Below the pieces are notes generated by a model. The model was not told the DNA's origin and ran no database searches. It saw only the letters and a program-made list of their open reading frames with translations. DNA of 64,000 nucleotides. It comes from Candidatus Saccharimonas sp. GTDB lineage: Bacteria; Patescibacteriota; Saccharimonadia; Saccharimonadales; Saccharimonadaceae. This document shows positions 1,788 through 57,006 of this stretch, piece by piece. Position 1 is the first letter of the stretch, and the number at the start of each line of letters is the position of its first letter. The translations under genes were made by a program, and so were the position numbers. The stretch spans positions 22,003 through 86,002 of the forward strand of contig JBDHUN010000001.1 of the NCBI GenBank assembly GCA_039809225.1, read 5' to 3'.

Positions 1788-3950
1788 ATGGATATTCTCG
1801 AGGGGCTTAATGATGCACAACGATCGGCAGTAGTGACGACCGAGGGGCCATTATTATTGCTCGCTGGTGCCGGTAGTGGCAAAACCAAGACGTTGACACA
1901 CCGGATTGCTTACTTATTGGCACATGAGCACATCTTGCCGGATGAAATTTTGGCCGTGACGTTTACTAACAAAGCCGCCCGGGAAATGCGCGAGCGATTG
2001 TGGAAGTTGACGCAACTCTCGACCGCTGACGACAGCAGTGGTGCGGGGCAGTGGCTTCAGCAGGAGGGGCAAGCTCCTCCTCGGGCATTCATGCCATGGA
2101 TGGGTACCTTTCATAGCATCTGCATCCGGATTTTGCGTGCCGATGGACCAAGCATTGGTGTTCCGTCAAACTTTGTGATTTATGACGAAGACGATCGCCA
2201 GTCACTCATCAAACAATACATGCCGAGCGTCGACGACAAAAAGATCACCAAAGGAAAGATCTCGGGCGCAATTTCGCGGGCCAAGAACGATATGATTTAC
2301 CCCGATGAATATATGGCCAATGCTTACTCGCCTTTGCAGCAAGCCGTTCAGGAAGTCTATCCGAAATACGAGAAAGCGCGTCGCGAGGCCGGGGCGCTCG
2401 ATTTTGATGATATCTTGCTTGAAACGGTGCGACTATTTACTGAGCAACCTGAGGTACGACACAAATACCAAGAGAAATTTAAACACATCTTTATCGACGA
2501 GTATCAGGACACCAATGCCGCCCAATACGCGATTGTTAAAGCGCTCGTCAATGATCATCGCAATATTTGTGTCGTGGGGGACGACTGGCAATCGATCTAT
2601 AGTTGGCGTGGGGCGGATTTTCGTAACATTTTGCGCTTCGAACAGGATTTTCCCGGTGCGACGGTCATCAAACTCGAGCAAAATTACCGTTCGACCAGTT
2701 CGATTTTGGAAGTAGCGCAGAGGGTGATTGATCACAATATCGAGCGCACTGACAAAAAACTCTGGACAGACCAATCTGGCGGTCTTCCGGTGCAAGTAAT
2801 TGCGGCTATAAATGATGACGAAGAAGCCTACCGTGTCGCGCAAACCATCGAACAGCGGGTACGGGGCGGCAAGCATGAGTTTAGTGATGTGGCAGTGCTC
2901 TATCGTACCAACGCGCAGTCGGCCTCATTTGAACGTATGTTTAACCAATTTGGCATTCCGTTTCGCTTGATCGGCAGCCGTAGTTTCTTAGACCGCGAAG
3001 TAGTGAAAGATCTACTGGCACATTTGAAATTGATTCACCAGCCGCTAGACCGTGCTAGCTTCATGCGCATCGTCAACAAACCAAAACGCGGTGTCGGCCA
3101 GGTAACACTTGACAAATTTTTGACATGGCAAACCGCGACGCAGCGCACGATCATTGCTGCGCTGTGCGAAGCCGACGAATTATCCGGCGTATCACAAAAA
3201 GTGAAAGAAGCACTCAAGCAGCTCGGCACAACACTCGCCGGGTTTGAAGAGCGAGTGTTGGACGGTACCATCACACCAGCAGAGCTAATCGACGATATCA
3301 CCAATCGTTCGTTGTACTATCGCTATATCACCGACGACAAGCTTAAAGCAGCCGATCGACTAGAGCATGCCAACGAACTATCGACCTGGGCCAGTGAATT
3401 TAGTGATCTGGCGGAATTTTTGGCGAGTGCCATGCTGGTGTCGTCGAGCGATACGGTGAATGATCGTGGTGAAGTGGCGCTCATGACCGTGCATGCTGCC
3501 AAGGGGCTGGAATTTCCGATTGTCTTTATCGTTGGCATGGAGCAGGGGCTGTTTCCGTTGATTCGCGGTAATTATATTGAGCCGAAGGACCTCGAGGAAG
3601 AGCGTCGGCTCTGCTATGTCAGCGTTACTAGGGCGCGCGAAGAATTACTGCTCGCCTATGCTGAACAACGACGCTGGTTTGGCGGCAACATTCACCCCAG
3701 CTTGCCGTCACAATTTCTCGAGGAAATGCAGCTTACTACGCCGCGCCGGAGCGAGCCGCAGACTCGCAATCGTTCGGAAGACGATTACTTTACTGATTTT
3801 CCCGACTTTGATATTGGCGATAGGGTGCGTTCGGCACAATTTGGAATCGGTGAGATTATCGATATCGATGGACTAGCGATATCAGTGAAGTTCACCAGTG
3901 GGGCTACGAAACTGCTGAATGTTGAGTATGCTCGACTGGAAAAGCTGTAA
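1788..3950 (+). CDS. pcrA: ATP-dependent DNA helicase, UvrD/PcrA family
   Basis: Walker A AGAGSGKTKT, TFTNKAAREM, DEYQDTN and VSVTRAREEL motifs. SD-like aaagagg directly upstream of the ATG. Confidence 0.9.
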   Translation: MDILEGLNDAQRSAVVTTEGPLLLLAGAGSGKTKTLTHRIAYLLAHEHILPDEILAVTFTNKAAREMRERLWKLTQLSTADDSSGAGQWLQQEGQAPPRAFMPWMGTFHSICIRILRADGPSIGVPSNFVIYDEDDRQSLIKQYMPSVDDKKITKGKISGAISRAKNDMIYPDEYMANAYSPLQQAVQEVYPKYEKARREAGALDFDDILLETVRLFTEQPEVRHKYQEKFKHIFIDEYQDTNAAQYAIVKALVNDHRNICVVGDDWQSIYSWRGADFRNILRFEQDFPGATVIKLEQNYRSTSSILEVAQRVIDHNIERTDKKLWTDQSGGLPVQVIAAINDDEEAYRVAQTIEQRVRGGKHEFSDVAVLYRTNAQSASFERMFNQFGIPFRLIGSRSFLDREVVKDLLAHLKLIHQPLDRASFMRIVNKPKRGVGQVTLDKFLTWQTATQRTIIAALCEADELSGVSQKVKEALKQLGTTLAGFEERVLDGTITPAELIDDITNRSLYYRYITDDKLKAADRLEHANELSTWASEFSDLAEFLASAMLVSSSDTVNDRGEVALMTVHAAKGLEFPIVFIVGMEQGLFPLIRGNYIEPKDLEEERRLCYVSVTRAREELLLAYAEQRRWFGGNIHPSLPSQFLEEMQLTTPRRSEPQTRNRSEDDYFTDFPDFDIGDRVRSAQFGIGEIIDIDGLAISVKFTSGATKLLNVEYARLEKL

Positions 3951-45101: not shown

Positions 45102-45431
45102 ATGGCAACAGACGCAAAAACGATGGAGGTTTTGTTGGAATCGCTTGATGGCATCCCAACTATTCGCACACGCAATATGTTTGGGGAGTATGCGGTGTAT
45201 GTGGAAGACAAGGTGGTGGGGTTTGTGTGTGATGATCGGCTGCTACTGAAAATCACCGACGCAAGCAAAACACTCGTACGCACGCAAGCGACCAGCAAGC
45301 CATATCCGAGTGCGAGGGATTATTATCATATTGATGAGAATGATTGGGATGACCGTGAGTATATGACAAGGCTCATCACGGCGACGGCCGATTCGTTGCC
45401 GGCGCCGAAGCCAAAGAAACGAAAAAGCTAG
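45102..45431 (+). CDS. TfoX/Sxy N-terminal domain protein
   Basis: ..IRTRNMFGEYAVYVEDKVVGFVCDDRLLLK.. matches the TfoX_N pattern. Confidence 0.75.
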   Translation: MATDAKTMEVLLESLDGIPTIRTRNMFGEYAVYVEDKVVGFVCDDRLLLKITDASKTLVRTQATSKPYPSARDYYHIDENDWDDREYMTRLITATADSLPAPKPKKRKS

Positions 45432-48120: not shown

Positions 48121-49608
48121 ATGCAGATGAACACTACACTAGAGGAAAAATTAAAAACCTTGCCGAATGCTCCAGGAGTGTATTTTCATCGATCCAGCAG
48201 CGGGGAAATCATTTATGTGGGCAAAGCTGCGGTGCTTAAAAACCGTGTGCGGCAATATTTCCAGAGCAAAAAAGATTTCGATATGAAGACGCTGGCACTG
48301 GTCAACGAAATTCACGATACTGAATGGGTCGAGACCGAGAGCGAAATCGACGCGTTATTTCTCGAAAGCGAGATGGTCAAGCGCTACATGCCGCGTTATA
48401 ACATCTTGCTGCGTGATGACAAATCACAGACATTTGTCCGCATTGACATGAAAAATGATTGGCCGTATGTCAGTTTCACGCGTAATCCGGCCGATGACGC
48501 AGCCACCTATGTCGGGCCTTTTTATAATGGCTATGCAGTCAAGAAAGCCCTGCGTTACCTGCGTAAGGTCTTTCCGTACTACACTAAGTCACCAACTGAC
48601 CGAAAACCTGATCTTGATGTCCATCTCGGCCTCAGCCCGCGTAGCGATTTAACGAGTCAAGAGTACAAAGCCAATTTGCGCAAACTACTGAGTTATATTC
48701 GCGGTGGTCGGGTGAAGATTACAAATGAGATCGAAAGAGACATGAAACGGGCGGCTCGCAACCAAGAGTTTGAGCGAGCAGCGGACTTACGCAATAAGCT
48801 GACTCATCTTAAAGAACTACAACGAAGAATTATGTTTGGCGACCGAGAATTCCTCGATATCAGTAAAGACCGCGCTTTGCAGGATTTGACGGAACTACTT
48901 CACCTGCCAAATTTGCCGGCGCGTATCGAAGGCTATGACATTAGTCACATGAGCGGCACCAATGTTGTAGCGAGCATGGTGGTGTTTACTAATGGCGTCA
49001 GTGATCGTGCGGAGTATCGTAAGTTTAAGACCAGGCGCGAACAAAATAACGACTTTGCCAACATGAGCGAGACGATCACCAGGCGATTGAGCGAAAAAAA
49101 TAGAGCAGCTTGGGGACTGCCGCAACTGTTTTTGATCGACGGCGGTAAGGGTCAACTCGATGCTGCTACATCGGCTCGTGATGAGCGTGAACAGCAAATT
49201 CCCATGATCGGGCTGGCCAAACGCGAAGAGCAAATCGTGATCCATCATGATAAATCGTTGGTGCAATTAAACAAAACGAAACTTGATGAACTGGGCGGTC
49301 ACTACATGACAAGCGATACGTTCACATTGGTAAATTTGCCCCATGACACTCATATCGTCAAATTGTTGCAACGGATTCGTGATGAATCGCACCGCTTCGC
49401 CGTCAGCTACCATACCGTATTGAAACGAAAATCTGCCACCAAAAGCAGCCTGGAAGATATTCCGGGTATCGGTCCGGCGACTCGTAAAAAATTGATCAAA
49501 ACGTTTGGTAGTTTGCGCGGCGTACAACAGGCAAGTGAAGTTGATGTCGCTGTGGCGATCGGTGACAGCAAAGCAAAAAAAGTCAAAGTGTGGCTAGCGG
49601 AACGTTGA
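48121..49608 (+). CDS. uvrC: Excinuclease ABC subunit C (short form)
   Basis: GIY-YIG N-terminus (GVYFHRSSSGEIIYVGKA..LKNRV), UVR domain and RNase H-like endonuclease region. Alternative start ATG 48127 lies 8 nt after a TATACT box. Confidence 0.9.
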   Translation: MQMNTTLEEKLKTLPNAPGVYFHRSSSGEIIYVGKAAVLKNRVRQYFQSKKDFDMKTLALVNEIHDTEWVETESEIDALFLESEMVKRYMPRYNILLRDDKSQTFVRIDMKNDWPYVSFTRNPADDAATYVGPFYNGYAVKKALRYLRKVFPYYTKSPTDRKPDLDVHLGLSPRSDLTSQEYKANLRKLLSYIRGGRVKITNEIERDMKRAARNQEFERAADLRNKLTHLKELQRRIMFGDREFLDISKDRALQDLTELLHLPNLPARIEGYDISHMSGTNVVASMVVFTNGVSDRAEYRKFKTRREQNNDFANMSETITRRLSEKNRAAWGLPQLFLIDGGKGQLDAATSARDEREQQIPMIGLAKREEQIVIHHDKSLVQLNKTKLDELGGHYMTSDTFTLVNLPHDTHIVKLLQRIRDESHRFAVSYHTVLKRKSATKSSLEDIPGIGPATRKKLIKTFGSLRGVQQASEVDVAVAIGDSKAKKVKVWLAER

Positions 49609-49631
49609 GATTCTGCCGTATACTAGGGTGC

Positions 49632-50816
49632 ATGGATGCACGATCTCACCGTGAAAAACTGACCCAGGCATTATCGGGCGGATTGATAGTCGTCTCGGCC
49701 CATGATCAGATGCAGCTAGCCGGTGATATGGCGGCACCTTTTTTGCAGGAGTCGAACTTTTTTTGGTTGACGGGCATCACGCTGCCTGGCTGGAAAGTTA
49801 TCATCGACGGTACGAGGCGACATGTGACTTTGGTACGGCCGACTCGCAGTAGGGTGGAAGAAATTTTTGATGGCGTAATCGATGACATCTCGCTGCTCAA
49901 TACGGCGGCGGCTGATGAGATTATTGACGCGAACGAATTTGAAAACTATTTACGCAAACTTGCCAAGCATCACCCCCTAGTGTATACGCCATACCACCCT
50001 GAATCGTACTCGTTTATTGTCAATCCCGCCCCAGGGAATTTATTTGCCGTCCTGGAACGCATTTTTACCAATACTGTAGATTGCACTAAGCAACTAGCTG
50101 AGCTGCGTGCCATCAAGAGTGATGAAGAAATCGCCATGATGCGAAAAGCAATCAAACTGACAACTGACGCGTTTAAGAGCGTACGTCAAAATTTGGATTC
50201 ATACCGCTACGAGTATGAAATCGAGGCCGACATGACGCAGCATTTTCGCCGGAATAACGCCACCCATGCCTATGAACCGATCATTGCGGCCGGGGCACAT
50301 GCTGTTACACTTCACTACACGGCGAATAATGCTAGCATAGCTCGGCAGCGTATGGTGCTGATCGATGTCGGGGCACGAGTTGGTGGCTATAGCGCCGATA
50401 TCACCAGGACATATTGTACCCACCCGACGAAACGCCAGCGCGAGATTCATGCTGCGGTTAAAGAAGCTCATCAACGTATCATTGCTCTGTTGAAGCCCGA
50501 CCTTCCCGTGGCGGAATATATTGCCGAGGTCGATGAGATCATGAAAGATGCACTCTCTGGCGTCAAATTGCTCAAAGACCGTAATGATATTGAAACCTAT
50601 CGAAAATACTTTCCTCATGCCATTAGCCACGGTCTTGGGATTGATCCGCATGATAACTTGGGGTCGCCGCGCTATTTCAAACCGGGCATGGTGGTTACGG
50701 TTGAGCCCGGCATATATATTCCCGAGGAAGGAATTGGTGTTAGGATCGAAGATGATATTTTGATTACAAAGACAGGGCACGAAAACCTGAGCCGCACGCT
50801 GCCGACTTCCTTATGA
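49632..50816 (+). CDS. pepP: Xaa-Pro aminopeptidase (M24B)
   Basis: Pita-bread metal ligand motifs DVGARVGGYSADITRT, HGLGIDPHD and VEPGIYIPEEGIGVRIEDD. The ORF is open from 49590, overlapping uvrC. Confidence 0.85.
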   Translation: MDARSHREKLTQALSGGLIVVSAHDQMQLAGDMAAPFLQESNFFWLTGITLPGWKVIIDGTRRHVTLVRPTRSRVEEIFDGVIDDISLLNTAAADEIIDANEFENYLRKLAKHHPLVYTPYHPESYSFIVNPAPGNLFAVLERIFTNTVDCTKQLAELRAIKSDEEIAMMRKAIKLTTDAFKSVRQNLDSYRYEYEIEADMTQHFRRNNATHAYEPIIAAGAHAVTLHYTANNASIARQRMVLIDVGARVGGYSADITRTYCTHPTKRQREIHAAVKEAHQRIIALLKPDLPVAEYIAEVDEIMKDALSGVKLLKDRNDIETYRKYFPHAISHGLGIDPHDNLGSPRYFKPGMVVTVEPGIYIPEEGIGVRIEDDILITKTGHENLSRTLPTSL

Positions 50817-50868
50817 GACGAATCCAACCTAGCTTTTTTATACCCAAACCGCTATACTTTATATCAGT

Positions 50869-51264
50869 ATGAAACGACAATTTCTGGTGTTTCTCATCCG
50901 CTGGATGCTCAACTCGTTTGGCCTATGGATCGCCGTCCGTATATTTGGAACTGGCTATAGTGATGCCGAGATCAATGCGAGTATATGGGTATTTCTCGTA
51001 GCGGGGCTGATCTTTTCTATCATCAATGGAGTGTTGCGGCCGATTGTTATCATTTTGGCACTGCCGGCTATCCTCCTCACTTTGGGGCTCTTTACTATTA
51101 TTGTCAATGGCCTAATGGTGTATGTGTCGCTAAAGCTTGCGCCGGGATTGCAAATGACATTTTGGCACTCCGTTCTTACCGGTTTGGTGCTGAGTCTGGT
51201 AAACTATATAGTGAGTAGTGCGCTAGAACTGGAGTATATGAAAGTGCGCGAGGAGAAATCATAG
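50869..51264 (+). CDS. Phage holin family 4 / DUF360 membrane protein
   Basis: LNSFGLWIAVRIF...RPIVIILALPAILLTLGLFTIIVNGLMVY... closely follows the 4-TM holin superfamily IV pattern. Confidence 0.8.
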   Translation: MKRQFLVFLIRWMLNSFGLWIAVRIFGTGYSDAEINASIWVFLVAGLIFSIINGVLRPIVIILALPAILLTLGLFTIIVNGLMVYVSLKLAPGLQMTFWHSVLTGLVLSLVNYIVSSALELEYMKVREEKS

Positions 51265-51266
51265 AG

Positions 51267-51494
51267 ATGAACACTATACTAATGGCAATTACAATTGGTT
51301 CGGCGGTCTTGATGGTGCTGGCAATCTTACTGCAGCAGCGTGGCGCAAGTCTTGGCGCAGGGTTTGGTGGTAGTAGCGAGCTTTATACCACTCGGCGCGG
51401 TCTCGACAAAAACTTATTTGAGGTCACTATTTTTCTGGCATTTGCATTTGTGCTGTCGATTCTAGCAGGGATTATCCTGCCAAACCTAACCTAG
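51267..51494 (+). CDS. secG: Preprotein translocase subunit SecG
   Basis: 75 aa, two TM helices, LLQQRGASLGAGFGG motif. Confidence 0.8.
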   Translation: MNTILMAITIGSAVLMVLAILLQQRGASLGAGFGGSSELYTTRRGLDKNLFEVTIFLAFAFVLSILAGIILPNLT

Positions 51495-51503
51495 GTACTA
51501 TGC

Positions 51504-53300
51504 GTGAACGACGATAAACAAGGGTGGAAACAATTTAAACGCATCAAGCTTGACCGCAAGCAATTAGTATCGCGTGCCAAGAAGGTTGAGAACGCGTCGC
51601 AGCGTCATGCCCATCACTTTATCGTTCGCCGACTCGATAATATCCGTATGGTATCGCATGAGGTAACGATATGGCTTCTGATAGTCGGAGCGATTATCGG
51701 AGGTCTTGGAGTCCAGCTTGTATGGAATCAGCATGAGTACACAACACAAGCCTCTGCTGCTGGAGGTACATATGTTGAAGGTGTTGTCGGGACAATCGAT
51801 ACACTCAATCCACTCTACGTCTCGACAAACTCTGAAGCCTCGGCGAGCCGTCTGTTGTTTTCATCGCTTTATAATTACGATGCGGTTGGGTCACTTCACC
51901 AAGATCTGGCTCAAGGTATGACGATCGACGATAGTCACAAAGTGTACACGGTAACGGTTCGTTCAAATGCGAGATGGCATGATGGTAAACCGGTAACGGC
52001 CAAGGATATCGTATTTACCCTGAATCTCATCAAAAATCCAGCAGTCCGTTCGCCACTGCGCGTCAACTGGACTGATGTTGCTGTGTCGGCACCCACCAAC
52101 ACAACCCTCCAATTTACATTGCCAGCTCCGTATGCGGCATTTCCCCATGCCTTGACGTTTCCGGTTCTCCCTGAGCACATATTAGGCAAGGTAAGTCCAG
52201 GTGCGCTGCGTGAAAGTACCTTTAGTCAGTCACCGCTTGGCAGCGGACCGTTTTCTTTCCGTCTTCTTCAACAAGCTGACGCAGTGAGTCATCACAAAGT
52301 TGTCCACCTTATCGCGAATCCATCGTATTATGGCGGCGCGCCAAAAATCAATCGCTTCGAGTTGCACGCTTACTCGACGAACGAGGCGATGCGTAAAGCG
52401 TTGAAAGTTGGTGAGTTAAGCGCCGGGAGCGATGTTGCGACTACTGCCCTCAACGATTTTACTGGTTCGGATTTTTCACGAATTGCGGTGCCAATTGATA
52501 GTGGGGTATATGCTCTGTTTAACCTCAATAGCCCGATCCTCAAAGAAGCTGGTGTTCGCAAAGCACTTCAGGTAGGGACGAATACTGATGCGTTGCGTCA
52601 AGCAATCGGTGGCGATCAGTTACCGCTTGGACTGCCAGTACTGAGCAATCAAATTTGGGGCAATGATGTACCGATTTCACCACCGTATGATGCCACAAAG
52701 GCCCAGGGTATACTAGACGAAGCCGGCTGGAACGTAAAAGATGGTGTGCGCGAAAAAGATGGCAAAAAACTAGAGCTAACGATTACGACCATCAAAGATA
52801 ATCAATACGAAAAAGCAGTGTCTGTGTTGGAACAGCAGTGGCAGCAACTTGGGGTTACTACCCACCATAGAGTAGTCGATACGTCTAGCGTGGCGTCGAC
52901 ATTCGTGCAAGACACTCTCCAAGCACGTAATTTCGATGTACTACTCTACGAGCTTGCTATCGGCGCTGATCCAGATATCTATGCTTATTGGCACTCATCG
53001 CAAATCGGCCAGACAGGTTATAATTTTTCAAACTACACCAATAAAACTGCTGATGCAAACCTTGCCAGCGCCAGAGCTCGTCTCGAACCAGAACTGCGTA
53101 ACGCTAAATACAAGCAGTTTGCCAGGCAGTGGTTGGCTGATGTGCCGGCAATAGGGCTGTACCAACCGGTACTCGAGTATGTCACCAACAACACCGTCAC
53201 GTCGCTCGCCGGCAATACACGTCTTGTGACGGCCGCTGATCGCTATGCGAATGTTCAGTACTGGACGGTCCATGATAGCGCAGTTTATAAAACACCGTGA
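51504..53300 (+). CDS. ABC transporter substrate-binding protein, family 5 (peptide/nickel type), membrane-anchored
   Basis: GTG start, N-terminal TM helix and SBP_bac_5-like body (..WHDGKPVTAKDIVFT.., ..ANPSYYGGAPKI..). Confidence 0.8.
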   Translation: MNDDKQGWKQFKRIKLDRKQLVSRAKKVENASQRHAHHFIVRRLDNIRMVSHEVTIWLLIVGAIIGGLGVQLVWNQHEYTTQASAAGGTYVEGVVGTIDTLNPLYVSTNSEASASRLLFSSLYNYDAVGSLHQDLAQGMTIDDSHKVYTVTVRSNARWHDGKPVTAKDIVFTLNLIKNPAVRSPLRVNWTDVAVSAPTNTTLQFTLPAPYAAFPHALTFPVLPEHILGKVSPGALRESTFSQSPLGSGPFSFRLLQQADAVSHHKVVHLIANPSYYGGAPKINRFELHAYSTNEAMRKALKVGELSAGSDVATTALNDFTGSDFSRIAVPIDSGVYALFNLNSPILKEAGVRKALQVGTNTDALRQAIGGDQLPLGLPVLSNQIWGNDVPISPPYDATKAQGILDEAGWNVKDGVREKDGKKLELTITTIKDNQYEKAVSVLEQQWQQLGVTTHHRVVDTSSVASTFVQDTLQARNFDVLLYELAIGADPDIYAYWHSSQIGQTGYNFSNYTNKTADANLASARARLEPELRNAKYKQFARQWLADVPAIGLYQPVLEYVTNNTVTSLAGNTRLVTAADRYANVQYWTVHDSAVYKTP

Positions 53301-53310
53301 GGCATGAAAC

Positions 53311-53880
53311 ATGAAGGTTACTACATACCTCGTATTGCTCCGTGGCATTAATGTTGGTGGCAAGAATAACGTACCGATGACGGTGTTAAAAGATTGTCTC
53401 GAAAAGATTGGATTCTCAAACGTAACGACATATATTGCTAGCGGTAACGTTATGCTAGATTCTGATGCATCGCCAGATGAGGTGAAGGATGCAATTGAAA
53501 AAGCACTGCCTGAAACGTTTCAGCTCGATAGCGAATTGATAAAAGTATTAGTGTTATCACGTAGACAACTCAAGAAAATTGTCGACAATAAGCCAAAAGG
53601 ATTCGGTGATCAGCCTGCGCTTTATCATAGCGACGCAATTTTTCTGATGGATGTTGTTGCTGCCGACGTTATGCCTATTTTTCGCCCGCGCGAAGGTGTC
53701 GATACGGTATGGCAAGGTGATGGAGTGGTATACTCGCAGCGTCTGAGCGCCAAGCGCAGCAAAAGTCGTCTTAGTATTATCGCCAGCACGCCATTTTATA
53801 AATCCATGACCATTCGCAGCTGGAATACGGTAGTGAAATTATTGGAGATAATGACCGATCTTGGTAGCAAAGGTAAATGA
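53311..53880 (+). CDS. DUF1697 domain protein
   Basis: YLVLLRGINVGGKNNVPMTVLKDCLEKIGFSNVTTYIASGNV is the canonical DUF1697 N-terminus. Confidence 0.8.
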   Translation: MKVTTYLVLLRGINVGGKNNVPMTVLKDCLEKIGFSNVTTYIASGNVMLDSDASPDEVKDAIEKALPETFQLDSELIKVLVLSRRQLKKIVDNKPKGFGDQPALYHSDAIFLMDVVAADVMPIFRPREGVDTVWQGDGVVYSQRLSAKRSKSRLSIIASTPFYKSMTIRSWNTVVKLLEIMTDLGSKGK

Positions 53881-53904
53881 ATGACTGATTTGAACGACCA
53901 AACT

Positions 53905-53929
53905 AAAAAGACACAAACTGTGTCTTTTT
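53905..53929 (+). terminator. Rho-independent terminator after the DUF1697 gene
   Basis: AAAAAGACACA-AAC-TGTGTCTTTTT hairpin. Confidence 0.7.
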
Positions 53930-53931
53930 AG

Positions 53932-54042
53932 TTTGGTGGACTTTAACGCGCAAGTCCGAACCTATTTTGAAGAAAGATGCTGATAAAAAACTTAGGTGCG
54001 TTGCGCCCCTGAGTTTTACTAAGAAAAAGGAATAATCGGTTT
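53932..54042. repeat. IR-A left arm (111 bp, perfect inverted repeat of 54817-54927)
   Basis: Reverse complement checked base by base against 54817-54927: 111/111 identical. Confidence 0.95.
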
Positions 54043-54154: not shown

Positions 54155-54183
54155 TTGACAAGTCAACAAACTTATGCTAATAT
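54155..54183 (+). promoter_or_regulatory. Near-consensus sigma-70 promoter with overlapping palindromes
   Basis: TTGACA (54155-54160), 17 nt, TAATAT (54178-54183). Palindrome TTGACAAGTCAA covers the -35. The perfect 16-bp palindrome TACACAAGTTTGTGTA (54191-54206) sits at about +1. Confidence 0.55.
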
Positions 54184-54321
54184 TAGATTATACACAAGTT
54201 TGTGTATGGACATTAAATAAATATCTCGGTCGGTTAAGTAAAGTTTGACTAGATTTTGTAAACTCTACTTATCCGGCTGAGATACAGGATCAAGGCCAAC
54301 GCTCTAGCAAAGGAGACTTCC

Positions 54322-54720
54322 ATGAGCGTACAGCACTACCGCCCCACCCAGACCGGTCGTCAGAGCGACAAGAAGCTGGTGGATGACATCGCGCGAGCGA
54401 TCATCCGCAATCACAATGTCGTGGCCGACCAGGTGGGCAACAACAACGGCTGGCAGGGCGATGTCGAGCAGCTTTGCCTGAAGAAGGCACTGTTGCTCAA
54501 CGGCCAGACCCTCGGTCGTGTCGTCATGGCCTTCCCGGAGGCCGACCTGTACGGAGTGCACTGCGGCACCTGGCTCGGCAAGTACGAGTCGGGGCCGTAT
54601 CTCCTCCAGCAGGTTGCGGCGACAGCTATCCTGTGGCGCATCCGGGTCATCCTCGGTGTCTGTGAGGACATCGCCGATGGCGACGACCGCCACATGGACC
54701 GCCTCCCGTGGGCGTCCTGA
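54322..54720 (+). CDS. Hypothetical 132-aa protein, compositionally foreign (high GC, strong GC3 bias)
   Basis: SD aaaggag 6 nt upstream of the ATG. Third codon positions are almost all G/C in this frame only. Several overlapping ORFs on both strands here are a high-GC artefact. No recognisable domain. Confidence 0.6.
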   Translation: MSVQHYRPTQTGRQSDKKLVDDIARAIIRNHNVVADQVGNNNGWQGDVEQLCLKKALLLNGQTLGRVVMAFPEADLYGVHCGTWLGKYESGPYLLQQVAATAILWRIRVILGVCEDIADGDDRHMDRLPWAS

Positions 54721-54816
54721 CCTTGTCCGTCCCCCAGTGTCCGCGCGAGAGCGTGGGCACTGGGGCCTACCCCAAAGGCATAAATGATTTAATGTTTTTG
54801 GGGTAGGTCTAACTTA

Positions 54817-54927
54817 AAACCGATTATTCCTTTTTCTTAGTAAAACTCAGGGGCGCAACGCACCTAAGTTTTTTATCAGCATCTTTCTTCAAAATAGGTT
54901 CGGACTTGCGCGTTAAAGTCCACCAAA
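54817..54927. repeat. IR-A right arm (111 bp)
   Basis: Perfect reverse complement of 53932-54042. Ends with hairpin GGACTT-N8-AAGTCC followed by ACCA. Confidence 0.95.
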
Positions 54928-54995
54928 AAGCGATTTTTCGGGAAATTGTCGCCCTTTCGGGCGATTTTTTCTTTGGCCGCGCAGAGCGCGAACCA
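54921..54995. repeat. IR-B left arm (75 bp, 74/75 identical to the reverse complement of 56726-56800)
   Basis: CACCAAAAAGCGAT(T/A)TTTCGGGAAATTGTCGCCCTTTCGGGCGATTTTTTCTTTGGCCGCGCAGAGCGCGAACCA. Includes a + oriented terminator hairpin (54948-54970). Similarity drops to about 65% beyond 54995. Confidence 0.9.
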
Positions 54996-55206
54996 AGGGT
55001 TTTTCAGGGAGGGAATGGAAAATTGCCACGCCGTTCGACGTGGTTTTTGTTCTTTGGTCGGCGAAAGCCGACAACTGCATTTTGTGATATTATTGAAGTG
55101 GACACAATCTAACTCGGGATAACTTTTTGTTTGGCTTTAATAGCCGTCTCGTGCAATTTGGTTATTCCGGATTGTGTCCAGCGAGGCGGCTATTTAAGTT
55201 GAGGGG

Positions 55207-56654
55207 GTGTGTATGCAACAGCCAGATCAAAAATTCACTTACTTTCTCTATGTCCGTAAATCTACCGACGTAGAGGACAAACAGGTTTTGTCCATTGAAG
55301 CGCAGATCGTGGAACTCAAAGAATTCGCACGGCGTTTGGAACTGCAAGTCGCCGGCATTTTTATAGAAAAGCAGACGGCGAAAAAGCCTGGTCGCCCTGT
55401 GTTTAATGAAATGCTACGCCGTATATCTGCCAGTAATGCTAACGGCATACTAGCATGGCTACCGGACAGGCTTTCTCGCAATTCAATAGATAGCGGGCAG
55501 ATAATCTATATGCTGGACGAAAATGTGCTAGGCGACTTGAAATTCCCGCATTTTTGGTTTGAAAACACGCCACAAGGCAAATACATGCTTGCCCACGAGT
55601 TTAACTCCTCAAAACAGTATGTAGACAATCTGTCAGTCAATACCAAGCGTGGTTTACGACAAAAAGTCCGCGCGGGTCATATTATCCAAGTATTGTGCCA
55701 TTTGGCTATTGCAACGATGTGCGGACAAAGACGGTGGCTAAAAACAAGAAAACCGCGCCGCTGGTGCGCCAATGTTTTGAGCTCTACGCCAAAGGCGACA
55801 AAACGTGTGGCGACATCGCGGACTTTTTGTTTACTAACAACGTGGCGACCAAAGGTCGCCGAAAAACCAAAAATGACCCGAAATCTGCGGGCGGTAAACG
55901 CTGGCACGAAACACGGGTCAAAAATATGCTTTCCAATATCTTTTACTACGGGCATTTTCTGTACGCTGGCGAAGTGCATGAGGGCAAACATCCACCAATA
56001 GTGGACAAAGCATTATTTGACCGCGTTCAAGTGGTTTTGGCTAGTCGCGGACGCGCCCAGAAACAAGCCACCACCCCACAACCACTCACAATGCTGGTGC
56101 GTTGCGCCAACTGTAATTGCTATGTTACTGGCTCGCACAAAGTTAAAAGCCAGAGAAATGGCAATGTGCACGAGTACACCTATTACCGATGTACGCACAA
56201 AAGTAAGACGGTGGCTTGTTCCGAACCAGAACTGCGCGAATATGCTCTTGCCAGCCAACTTGTGCCAATCGCGCGGTCATTTGCTATGCCGCAATATATG
56301 GGCGCGTTTATGCTCGCCAAACTAGACGAGGACGCACAAGTTGTCCAAGCCGACAACACCAAACTAATTGCCACGCACCGCGCCCGACTGGACGAACTGG
56401 CTGGCAAGAGTAAGCGGCTTTTTGATATTTACCTAGACGGCGACATTGACCAAAGCGATTACCAAGACCGCCGCGCCGAATTGATGAGCCGCAAAAAGTC
56501 GCTAGAGGAAAAAATAGAGCATGTCGCTGCTCGCGCTGACTTTTGGATTGAACCTATGCGCGAGTGGGTCAAAACAGCAATTTCACTCTGTGAAATTGAC
56601 GAAAAACCCCACACCAAGCCTTGCGCGAGAGTTTACGCAAAATTGACGGATTGA
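55207..56654 (+). pseudogene. Large serine recombinase, split by a -1 frameshift near 55678
   Basis: ORF1 carries the resolvase catalytic domain (YVRKSTDVEDKQVLSIEAQ, LAWLPDRLSRN). ORF2 (from 55695, frame -1) carries PFGY, the recombinase domain (W..RVKNMLSNIFYYG), a Zn-ribbon (CANCNC..YYRCTHK) and a coiled coil. Confidence 0.8.
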
Positions 56655-56725
56655 ACCTGCTGCTGAAAAACAAAAAAGTCGTTGCAAGCAACGACCAATT
56701 TCCCATCTCCCCCCAAGAAAACATC

Positions 56726-56800
56726 TGGTTCGCGCTCTGCGCGGCCAAAGAAAAAATCGCCCGAAAGGGCGACAATTTCCCGAAATATCGCTTTTTGGTG
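56726..56800. repeat. IR-B right arm (native 3' flank of tRNA-Leu(GAG))
   Basis: Reverse complement of 54921-54995 with one mismatch. Overlaps the tRNA CCA end (56796-56800). Confidence 0.9.
56751..56773 (-). terminator. Rho-independent terminator of tRNA-Leu(GAG), with a second one at 56672-56695
   Basis: Minus strand: TCGCCC-TTTC-GGGCGA then TTTTTT. Further downstream GTCGTTGC-TT-GCAACGAC then TTTTTT. Confidence 0.65.
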
Positions 56801-56883
56801 CACTGAAGAGGACTTGAACCTCCACGGCCGCAATGGCCACCAGCCCCTCAAGCTGACGCGTCTACCAATTCCGCCACCAGTGC
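56796..56883 (-). tRNA. tRNA-Leu (anticodon GAG)
   Basis: Hand-folded cloverleaf. Acceptor GCACTGG/TCAGTGC, D-arm GCG-GAATTGGTAGA-CGC, anticodon stem TCAGC/GCTGG with loop TTGAGGG. Long variable arm, T-arm GGAGG-TTCAAGT-CCTCT, encoded ACCA end. Confidence 0.9.
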
Positions 56884-56946
56884 GTGGTGTAAGGTGTGCA
56901 ATGAGCTATTGAAGTTTATTGTCATTCTCGGACGTTTATTACTCAC

Positions 56947-57006
56947 GGGCGGAATTGGTAGACGCTTTACGTCTACAATTATTTGCGTTTCACGCAGCCG
57001 CCACCA
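56947..57006 (+). other. tRNA-Leu-derived fragment / tRNA-like three-way structure ending in ACCA
   Basis: 18 nt GGCGGAATTGGTAGACGC (56947-56964) are identical to the Leu tRNA D-arm region. They form an 18-bp inverted repeat with 56858-56875. Foldable as stem GGCGG/CCGCC + 2 hairpins + ACCA. Not a full cloverleaf. Confidence 0.3.

Follow-up and report, generated by a model that had tools for sequence, protein, structure and literature searches.

An inverted-repeat cassette of Saccharibacteria carrying a conserved high-GC3 gene with a predicted structured messenger RNA

Why should one short gene end almost every codon in G or C in a region where the other genes do not? The question is raised by an open reading frame (ORF) at 54322-54720 in a 64,000-nucleotide stretch of Candidatus Saccharimonas sp. 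(assembly GCA_039809225.1, contig JBDHUN010000001.1, positions 22,003 to 86,002), which is referred to here as the window. An initial annotation, made from the letters of the sequence, suggested that the coding sequence had come from a high-GC donor not long ago and had been set behind a local promoter within an AT-rich island. That explanation turned out to be largely wrong, although it was right to sense unusual, mobile DNA in a Saccharibacteria-like genome. The high G/C content of third codon positions (GC3) is an old trait of this branch of the gene family rather than a sign of recent high-GC capture, and the gene is best regarded, with a probability of roughly 0.55, as part of a self-contained cassette of a candidate phyla radiation (CPR) family whose old high GC3 is most likely maintained through selection on pairing within the messenger RNA (mRNA).

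The gene and the promoter that precedes it are located as follows.

54155-54183, forward strand: near-consensus sigma-70-type promoter, TTGACA-17-TAATAT with a TG extension, 10/12 matches
54322-54720, forward strand: protein-coding ORF of 132 amino acids, ATG to TGA, GC3 0.85, predicted all-helical product, motif LYGVHCGTWLGKYESGPYLLQQ

The GC content of the whole ORF is 0.637, and its third codon positions comprise 66 C, 46 G, 15 T, and 5 A. In the 61 other non-overlapping window ORFs of at least 100 amino acids, GC3 has a mean of 0.52, a standard deviation of 0.07, and a maximum of 0.63, which makes the gene an outlier by about 4.5 standard deviations and bears out the description of an ORF much richer in GC, with G or C at its third positions. 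Since GC is 0.67 at first and 0.39 at second codon positions, the excess lies mainly at the wobble positions; 112 of the 132 codons end in G or C, and AAG, CAG, and GAG are used exclusively. A good Shine-Dalgarno (SD) sequence had also been reported, and AAAGGAG is indeed present 7 nt before the ATG. The upstream 280 bp had been called AT-rich, which holds for the 279 bp between the left repeat arm (described below) and the ATG (34% GC), but the term AT-rich island was overstated, as the wider surroundings, with GC of 0.40-0.46 against 0.49 for the whole window, are only mildly AT-rich.

On comparison with homologous sequences, the ORF is protein-coding, and the gene can be regarded as genuine. 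Pairwise codon comparisons give a ratio of nonsynonymous to synonymous substitution rates (dN/dS) of 0.25-0.45 for close pairs, differences between homologs fall on codon positions in the order 3 > 1 > 2, differences in length are whole codons, and the SD sequence and ATG are conserved across homologs. An overlapping antisense gene was considered as the cause of the high GC3 and rejected: the frame -1 ORF at 54304-54693 is open in 6 of 8 homologs and broken in L012 and L013 (L001-L029 are labels of the compared loci or contigs), and an open frame of this kind is the expected by-product of avoiding codons that end in A.

The protein family and the age of its composition

Relatives of the 132-residue product were collected at two levels of sensitivity. 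A word-indexed protein search recovered 16 close relatives at 47-90% identity, and a hidden Markov model (HMM) scan of 1.84 billion representative proteins with the family profile recovered 83 relatives at E <= 0.001, measuring 77-199 amino acids except for two repetitive proteins of more than 1,000 amino acids, which are probably spurious. The conserved pattern among the profile relatives is TLGR...LYxVHCGTWLGKYxSGxxLLxxIAATAI, a motif kept down to 25-35% identity. About 100 relatives are counted in total, and every one whose context was checked, including the closest ones at 74-90% amino acid identity, lies in a Saccharibacteria/CPR-like setting. Named members come from a Candidatus Saccharimonadales metagenome-assembled genome (MAG), a Candidatus Taylorbacteria (CPR) MAG, and one MAG labeled Methylomirabilota. 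A pattern scan of 185,579 GTDB species genomes, based on exact peptide words that distant actinobacterial relatives could escape, yielded 3 loci, two of them titled Saccharimonadales/Saccharibacteria and the third an unclassified "uncultured bacterium" MAG. The guess of a Saccharibacteria-like organism agrees with the identifiable relatives, which, apart from the Methylomirabilota-labeled MAG, belong to Saccharimonadales/CPR assemblies. Phages had been named as a place where homologs might be found; DNA and protein searches of phage, plasmid, and IMG/VR collections, including two IMG/VR scans, returned no family relative. Paralogy of the family gene with GC-rich neighbors in L013, L015, and L012 was considered and rejected.

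The product lacks a known domain, a signal peptide, and a transmembrane helix, as had been read from its sequence. The window protein and 45 family members have no Pfam, PHROG, PADLOC, or PDB-sequence match, and a PADLOC line naming REase_II for the window protein (E = 0.037) is noise. AlphaFold2, applied to the family alignment, returned a confident all-helical model with a predicted local distance difference test (pLDDT) score of 74 and a predicted template modeling (pTM) score of 0.71, for which Foldseek found no neighbor below E = 2 in the PDB and BFVD. The V-H-C-G-T-W-L-G-K-Y loop, with its invariant His, is the most conserved part of the protein, yet it is the part modeled with the lowest confidence. 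The model points to a small cytoplasmic all-helical protein, and no description of the family, its leader, or its cassette was found in the literature.

The unusual composition is shared by the family. At 13 Saccharibacteria-type homologous loci, the gene has a GC3 of 0.79-0.92, compared with 0.47-0.74 in neighboring genes, and it relaxes only in very distant members, with 0.45 in L018 (host 0.35) and 0.54 in L029 (host 0.41-0.50). The synonymous divergence (dS) between clades is saturated at about 0.9-1.3, which, combined with the retained GC3 of 0.79-0.92, implies that third positions have turned over and yet remained G or C. The surroundings behave differently from the gene: flanking genes are unrelated even between copies that are 74-90% identical, while the ORF is accompanied by the same conserved promoter, leader of about 130 nt, SD sequence, and GC-rich 3' hairpins even at loci with protein identities of only 35-55% and unrelated flanks. 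The promoter at 54155-54183 is thus kept upstream of homologs in unrelated contexts and belongs to the module rather than to the locality, and its conservation together with the leader contradicts a coding sequence dropped behind a local promoter. The proposed recent capture from a high-GC donor likewise finds no support, given the presence of the same anomaly in 13 homologs and nearest relatives that are Saccharibacteria/CPR-like.

Structure of the leader, the coding region, and the transcript

The region between the promoter and the start codon contains the following elements.

54188-54321, forward strand: structured 5' leader (fold z = -5.35), composed of a 5' hairpin, a linker, and hairpins P2 and P3
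about 54188-54209, forward strand: 5' hairpin of the leader
54205-54213, forward strand: linker UAUGGACAU, predicted to pair with a segment after the stop codon
54222-54284, forward strand: long hairpin P2, with covariation
54299-54328, forward strand: hairpin P3 (ACGCUC...GAGCGU), enclosing the SD sequence and AUG

Judged from aligned sequences, the leader is a conserved structured RNA. In 13 sequences, 89% of the cells of P2 are paired, against 33-41% in slid controls, and 11 of its pairs show compensatory changes, a level of covariation that was matched in 0 of 500 column shuffles. The P3 helix ACGCUC...GAGCGU occurs in 11 of the 13 leaders, while L024 and L026 instead pair GGCC...GGCC around the AUG. 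A covariance model of the leader, termed R1, matches each locus once, in every case immediately 5' of the family gene; across the whole 64-kb window, it has no match beyond the leader upstream of this gene. A search of 53.5-57.5 kb against Rfam 15, with E up to 1, produced no match to the leader, only a true tRNA and noise.

The structure continues into the coding sequence (CDS). When compared with synonymous-codon shuffles that preserve the protein, the codon usage, and GC3, the CDS folds far better than its shuffled counterparts in 14 of 16 homologs, including distant members with low GC3. The individual z values are listed below, together with those of control genes from the window.

Window -3.2; L001 -6.0; L019 -5.4; L006 -3.2
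L002 -2.9; L011 -2.6; L022 -2.9; L005 -4.0
L013 -2.35; L024 -7.1; L026 -6.5; L017 -5.1
L029 -5.4; L018 -3.9; L012 -1.1; L015 -0.8
17 window control genes: mean -0.43, standard deviation 1.64

RNAalifold, run on a codon-aware alignment of 8 homologs, gives a consensus fold of -64.2 kcal/mol, whereas shuffling of the codon columns yields -39.8 ± 5.4 (z = -4.6), with 0 of 200 shuffles as good and compensatory changes in 24 of the 87 pairs. For the predicted transcript at 54190-54875, the minimum free energy is -314.8, compared with -239.3 ± 6.4 (z = -11.9). The elements of its 3' part are listed below.

54721-54807, forward strand: conserved 3' untranslated region (UTR), formed by a post-stop segment and two hairpins
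54723-54731, forward strand: post-stop segment UUGUCCGUC, complementary to the leader linker
54732-54765, forward strand: 15-bp GC-rich hairpin
54766-54807, forward strand: second 3' hairpin

Downstream of the stop codon, the segment CTGACCTT shows no variation among five homologs. In the predicted fold, the linker at 54205-54213 pairs with the post-stop segment at 54723-54731, and an equivalent 5'-3' pairing of 6-10 bp, within the first 20 nt or so after the stop codon, can be formed in 11 of the 11 homologs tested; in L013, both sides of the pairing have changed (GAACACGAGG / CCUCGUGUUU).

The high GC3 most likely results from selection on the base pairing of the mRNA. The cassette would consist of the promoter, the structured leader of about 130 nt, the ORF of 132 amino acids, and the structured 3' UTR, producing a transcript of about 0.7 kb that is predicted to fold compactly and very stably. 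Its fold would include the 5' hairpin, the covarying leader hairpin, the hairpin around the SD sequence and AUG, the CDS helices, the pairing between the leader and the post-stop segment, and two or three 3' hairpins. Such an mRNA may be long-lived, with translation held off until some signal opens the structure; on these models, translation is probably gated.

Among the control genes, one with a TfoX_N domain at 45102-45431 reached z = -4.75 against synonymous shuffles at an ordinary GC3 of 0.56, and this gene may carry conserved mRNA structure too.

The inverted-repeat cassette and its surroundings

In the window, the promoter and ORF module lies between two perfectly complementary repeat arms that are 774 bp apart. 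The features that delimit this unit are listed below.

53932-54042, no strand assigned: left arm, 111-nt inverted repeat, 100% complementary to the right arm
54817-54927, no strand assigned: right arm, 111-nt inverted repeat, with homologs in L006 and L020
about 54848-54876, no strand assigned: bidirectional terminator-like hairpin in the right arm, GGGGCGCAACGCACC plus a T-run
53897-53937, no strand assigned: perfect 19+19-nt palindrome, ACCAAACTAAAAAGACACA-aac-TGTGTCTTTTTAGTTTGGT, spanning the left cassette junction
53902-53910, forward strand: left 9-bp direct repeat ACTAAAAAG, bounding a 1,020-bp unit
54922-54930, forward strand: right 9-bp direct repeat ACCAAAAAG, bounding the 1,020-bp unit

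Arms are also present in the closest relatives, with 105 nt at 98% in L001 and 178 nt at 97% in L019/L020, and L006 (74% amino acid identity) has the right-arm sequence only. Between genomes, the arms are only about 70% alike, and their identity within each genome therefore implies concerted evolution; their GC content is only 40%. The palindrome forms a terminator-like hairpin after the DUF1697 gene, and an analogous hairpin (ACCAAAGTAAAA...TTTTACTTTGGT) stands outside the arms in L019/L020.

The unit is present or absent between near-identical strains. Positions 599-1317 and 1309-2787 of L027 correspond to window positions 53192-53910 and 54922-56400, respectively, at 99.86% identity. L027 does not have the intervening 1,020 bp, exactly the segment that carries the gene, and its empty site contains ACCAAAAAG once; the unit has thus been gained or lost as a block, and the gene does lie in recently variable DNA. 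The match of L028 to the window, at 100%, breaks off within the left arm. The two 9-bp repeats are identical at 8 of 9 positions, the left one lying 22 nt outside its arm and the right one overlapping its arm, and no flanking duplication was seen at the arms of L001. The junction of the right arm and its flank (…CACCAAAAA-GCGATTTTTC…) is common to L006, which favors a deletion in L027, by slippage between short repeats across a long palindrome, over a fresh insertion. Transposase-independent precise excision of Tn10 and Tn5, between 9-bp repeats, works by such repeat slippage. That the same arm-flanked unit also turns up in different surroundings, in L001 and L019, favors mobility.

The outer ends of the arms read GGTTCG...CCACCA and resemble the 3' end of a tRNA. 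In L001, an arm abuts the CCA end of tRNA-Gly(CCC), and the outer ends of the L019/L020 repeats consist of fragments that resemble the T arm of tRNA-Gly. The arms were considered as a degenerate tRNA gene, a candidate that was rejected as neither ARAGORN nor the Rfam tRNA model detects one. In L002, L011, and L022, tRNA-Gly(GCC) stands directly upstream of the family gene.

A serine recombinase gene lies 280 bp from the inverted-repeat segment of the window. It encodes a large serine recombinase (55207-56654) with Resolvase, Recombinase, and Zn_ribbon_recom domains and is split into two overlapping ORFs by a frameshift at 55674-55676, where a G-run is 1 nt short (GGG in place of the GGGG needed for an intact frame). 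L027, an independent assembly, has the identical frameshift, which argues for a real pseudogene or a slippery site rather than a sequencing error. The recombinase gene is bracketed by a second inverted repeat (54917-55025 / 56696-56804; 109 nt, 89%), in both copies of which an initial ...CACCA leads into a terminator hairpin. Of the two, the right-hand one is the genuine 3' flank of tRNA-Leu(GAG), a gene located at 56796-56883; when the region was tested as a tRNA-targeting island, this flank was found to be duplicated in inverted rather than direct orientation (89%). A flank of the same type lies between the module and tRNA-Leu(CAA) in L006. A fragment of a tRNA-Leu 5' half, GGCGGAATTGGTAGACGC, occurs on the forward strand at 56944-56975, 60-80 nt beyond the intact tRNA-Leu, and contains an 18-nt perfect inverted copy of 56858-56875 followed by a fold-back, GTAGACGC-ttta-CGTCTAC, which gives this region a further palindromic junction.

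Other neighbors differ from locus to locus. Upstream of the position corresponding to 53192, L027 has an Amidase_2 gene where the window has SBP_bac_5. The next-best relatives of the DUF1697 protein are about 73% identical and are named from Chloroflexi and Actinobacteria, and the block from DUF1697 to the recombinase may be an exchanged island in its own right. In L012 (2715-7868), the family gene lies between UvrC and a holin_4_2/SecG/SBP_bac_5 block, in loose synteny with window 48121-53300, where the order is UvrC, M24 peptidase, holin_4_2, and SBP_bac_5 and the family gene follows about 3.5 kb further on; the neighborhood has been kept and the slot has changed. In the higher-GC L015, a GC-rich terminator-type hairpin with CC(C/T)ACCC occurs at 2595-2627 and again at 3466-3498, flanking the family gene on both sides, which suggests a duplicated module boundary. 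Family members often adjoin genes of mobility or addiction, such as an IS110 transposase, a tyrosine integrase, and HicB/PIN and RelB/YafQ pairs, as recorded from L005 (6497-7468), L029 (1061-1912), L002 (1654-2343), and L017 (2380-2915).

Alternative explanations, known systems, and significance

Several observations weigh against a CPR-family cassette whose GC3 is kept by mRNA pairing. The gene is no outlier in L005 and L015 (z = 1.3; GC3 of neighbors 0.71-0.74). Polarized third-position changes run from G/C to A/T rather than from A/T to G/C by 27:7. The window clade contributes 16:4, with 9:0 falling on the branch of the window itself, and the L002 clade 11:3; this bias fits slow decay and could mean that GC3 is being lost and not maintained. 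Counted per site, however, the changes show no AT bias (about 0.12 from G/C to A/T, about 0.20 from A/T to G/C), and an excess of G/C to A/T changes is common on tip branches. L012 and L015, with the two z values closest to zero among the homologs, combine high GC3 with no significant excess of structure, and the distant L018 and L029 show an excess of structure without high GC3. The compensatory pairs in the CDS mostly distinguish only two clades and represent few independent events. The 5'-3' pairings are individually weak (z = -1.2 to -3.8), and non-cognate pairs across clades score nearly as well as cognate ones, because most clades share a GACAU/AUGUC core. The causal link from structure to GC3 is one that we infer. 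The restriction of the family to CPR would likewise extend what is seen at the sampled loci, most of the 83 profile matches coming without context; Methylomirabilota, the label of one distant relative, is not CPR, and only two distant relatives bear organism names.

The alternative that survives best, and which is possible rather than probable, combines historical residue with mobility: the gene would stem from a higher-GC CPR origin, its lateral spread would outpace amelioration at wobble positions, and its GC3 would be fading. The third-position bias in the window and L002 clades is what such a history would leave, and the ordinary standing of the gene in the higher-GC L005 and L015 fits it as well, as do the wholly different flanking genes among copies that are 74-90% identical, the presence or absence of the cassette between strains at 99.86% identity, and the integrase or transposase genes that adjoin the family gene in the window, L005, and L029. 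However, all 13 copies, including deep clades in hosts of about 45-50% GC, have kept GC3 at 0.79-0.92 at saturated dS, the conserved CDS structure seen under controls that preserve GC3 and codons is left unexplained, and no copies were found on viral or plasmid sequences in the collections searched.

A more speculative proposal, which must be considered doubtful, is that of a selfish or conditional CPR module with a "locked" dual-purpose RNA, in which the fold would be as much the selected product as the protein. In one version, drawn by analogy, the module would be a hok-like toxin or addiction gene, silenced after transcription, that encodes an unusually large soluble effector and rides on an excisable inverted-repeat unit settling beside tRNA genes.

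GC-biased gene conversion, between strains or between inverted repeats, could in principle drive wobble GC without selection on RNA. The concerted evolution of the arms does indicate ongoing conversion in the immediate vicinity, and the cassette is recombinationally active, as its presence and absence attest. This explanation is nevertheless improbable: the ORF is single-copy and not itself a conversion partner, the homogenized arms reach only 40% GC, the arm-less homologs L002, L005, L006, L012, and L013 have the same GC3, the observed substitutions are not GC-biased in count, and conversion does not predict structure beyond that of synonymous shuffles.

It is very unlikely that the region is primarily a structured non-coding RNA with an ORF arising as an accident of GC richness. 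The extreme fold of the transcript, the conserved structure of the CDS, the antisense frame that is also open in 6 of 8 homologs, and a dN/dS that is only moderately low would be compatible with it, but codon periodicity with dN/dS < 1, whole-codon insertions and deletions, a motif kept at 25-35% identity across the 83 profile matches, the conserved SD sequence and AUG, the confident AlphaFold2 fold, and the breaks in the antisense frame of L012 and L013 all speak for a protein. Least likely of all is the capture first proposed, in which the coding sequence would have been acquired recently from an actinobacterial host or another high-GC donor and joined to an AT-rich promoter already in place. 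The codon usage does look like that of a high-GC organism, and the unit is an indel between near-identical strains beside serine recombinase and tRNA genes, but the ORF has kept its promoter and leader throughout the family, the named or context-checked relatives are CPR-like apart from the Methylomirabilota-labeled MAG, the phage, plasmid, and IMG/VR searches gave no match, and homologs only 35-55% identical share the anomaly.

The cassette with GC3 kept by mRNA pairing, which remains the preferred reading, can be compared with several known systems. It resembles hok/sok in being a compact stand-alone gene with its own strong promoter and a heavily folded mRNA (predicted here), in having the SD sequence and start codon inside a predicted hairpin, in its predicted 5'-3' closure, and in its location in mobile or variable DNA. 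The hok mRNA has a fold-back inhibition element formed by 5'-3' pairing. The differences are that the product here has 132 amino acids and is soluble, all-helical, and free of transmembrane helices, whereas type I toxins are hydrophobic and shorter than 60 amino acids, and that the cassette has no leader ORF; a consensus promoter scan within and after the ORF found no antisense promoter. Riboswitches and other cis-acting leaders share with it a conserved 5' UTR, a covarying hairpin, an SD-occluding helix, and association with one gene family, but the leader has no Rfam 15 match, and the structure here runs through the CDS and the 3' UTR, which is atypical of riboswitches.

With its strongly outlying GC3, its presence or absence between strains, and its position next to recombinase and tRNA genes, the gene looks like the ameliorating genes described by Lawrence and Ochman. 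It differs from them in that the anomaly is found in all 13 Saccharibacteria-type homologs at saturated dS and independently of host GC, that regulatory DNA travels along, and that neither the GTDB exact-word scan nor the profile relatives revealed a high-GC donor. Long terminal inverted repeats, a 9-bp boundary repeat, occupied and empty sites, and the lack of an internal transposase recall miniature inverted-repeat transposable elements (MITEs) and other units with terminal inverted repeats, but no target-site duplication abuts both ends, the repeats being 8/9 identical and offset or overlapping, and the 64-kb window holds one copy of the cassette. The segment of about 0.8 kb, bounded by perfect inverted repeats and with a serine recombinase gene at a distance of 280 bp, recalls an inverton; however, an inversion would carry the enclosed promoter and ORF along together and so could not switch the gene, the recombinase gene is frameshifted and belongs to the large serine type, and only one orientation of the segment was seen in the assemblies compared. 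The cassette is therefore not a member of any known family tested. By analogy, it would work most like a leader-controlled or hok-like locked mRNA, the resemblance to hok being one of logic and not of membership.

For genome scans, the locus provides a caution, since a GC3 outlier beside recombinase and tRNA genes mimics a textbook recent transfer, while the anomaly here is a stable trait of this branch of the family and finds a better explanation in a constraint on mRNA structure. What is new comprises a protein family without a Pfam model, a PDB relative, or a known fold, to which the 83 profile matches belong, a covarying leader RNA absent from Rfam, and a family-wide excess of mRNA structure coupled to a host-independent GC3. 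These are joined in an inverted-repeat cassette of about 1 kb that varies between near-identical strains, an uncharacterized object of the CPR. If the fold of the whole message does gate translation or stabilize the RNA, the family would offer a clear example, in bacteria, of RNA structure driving the composition of synonymous sites.

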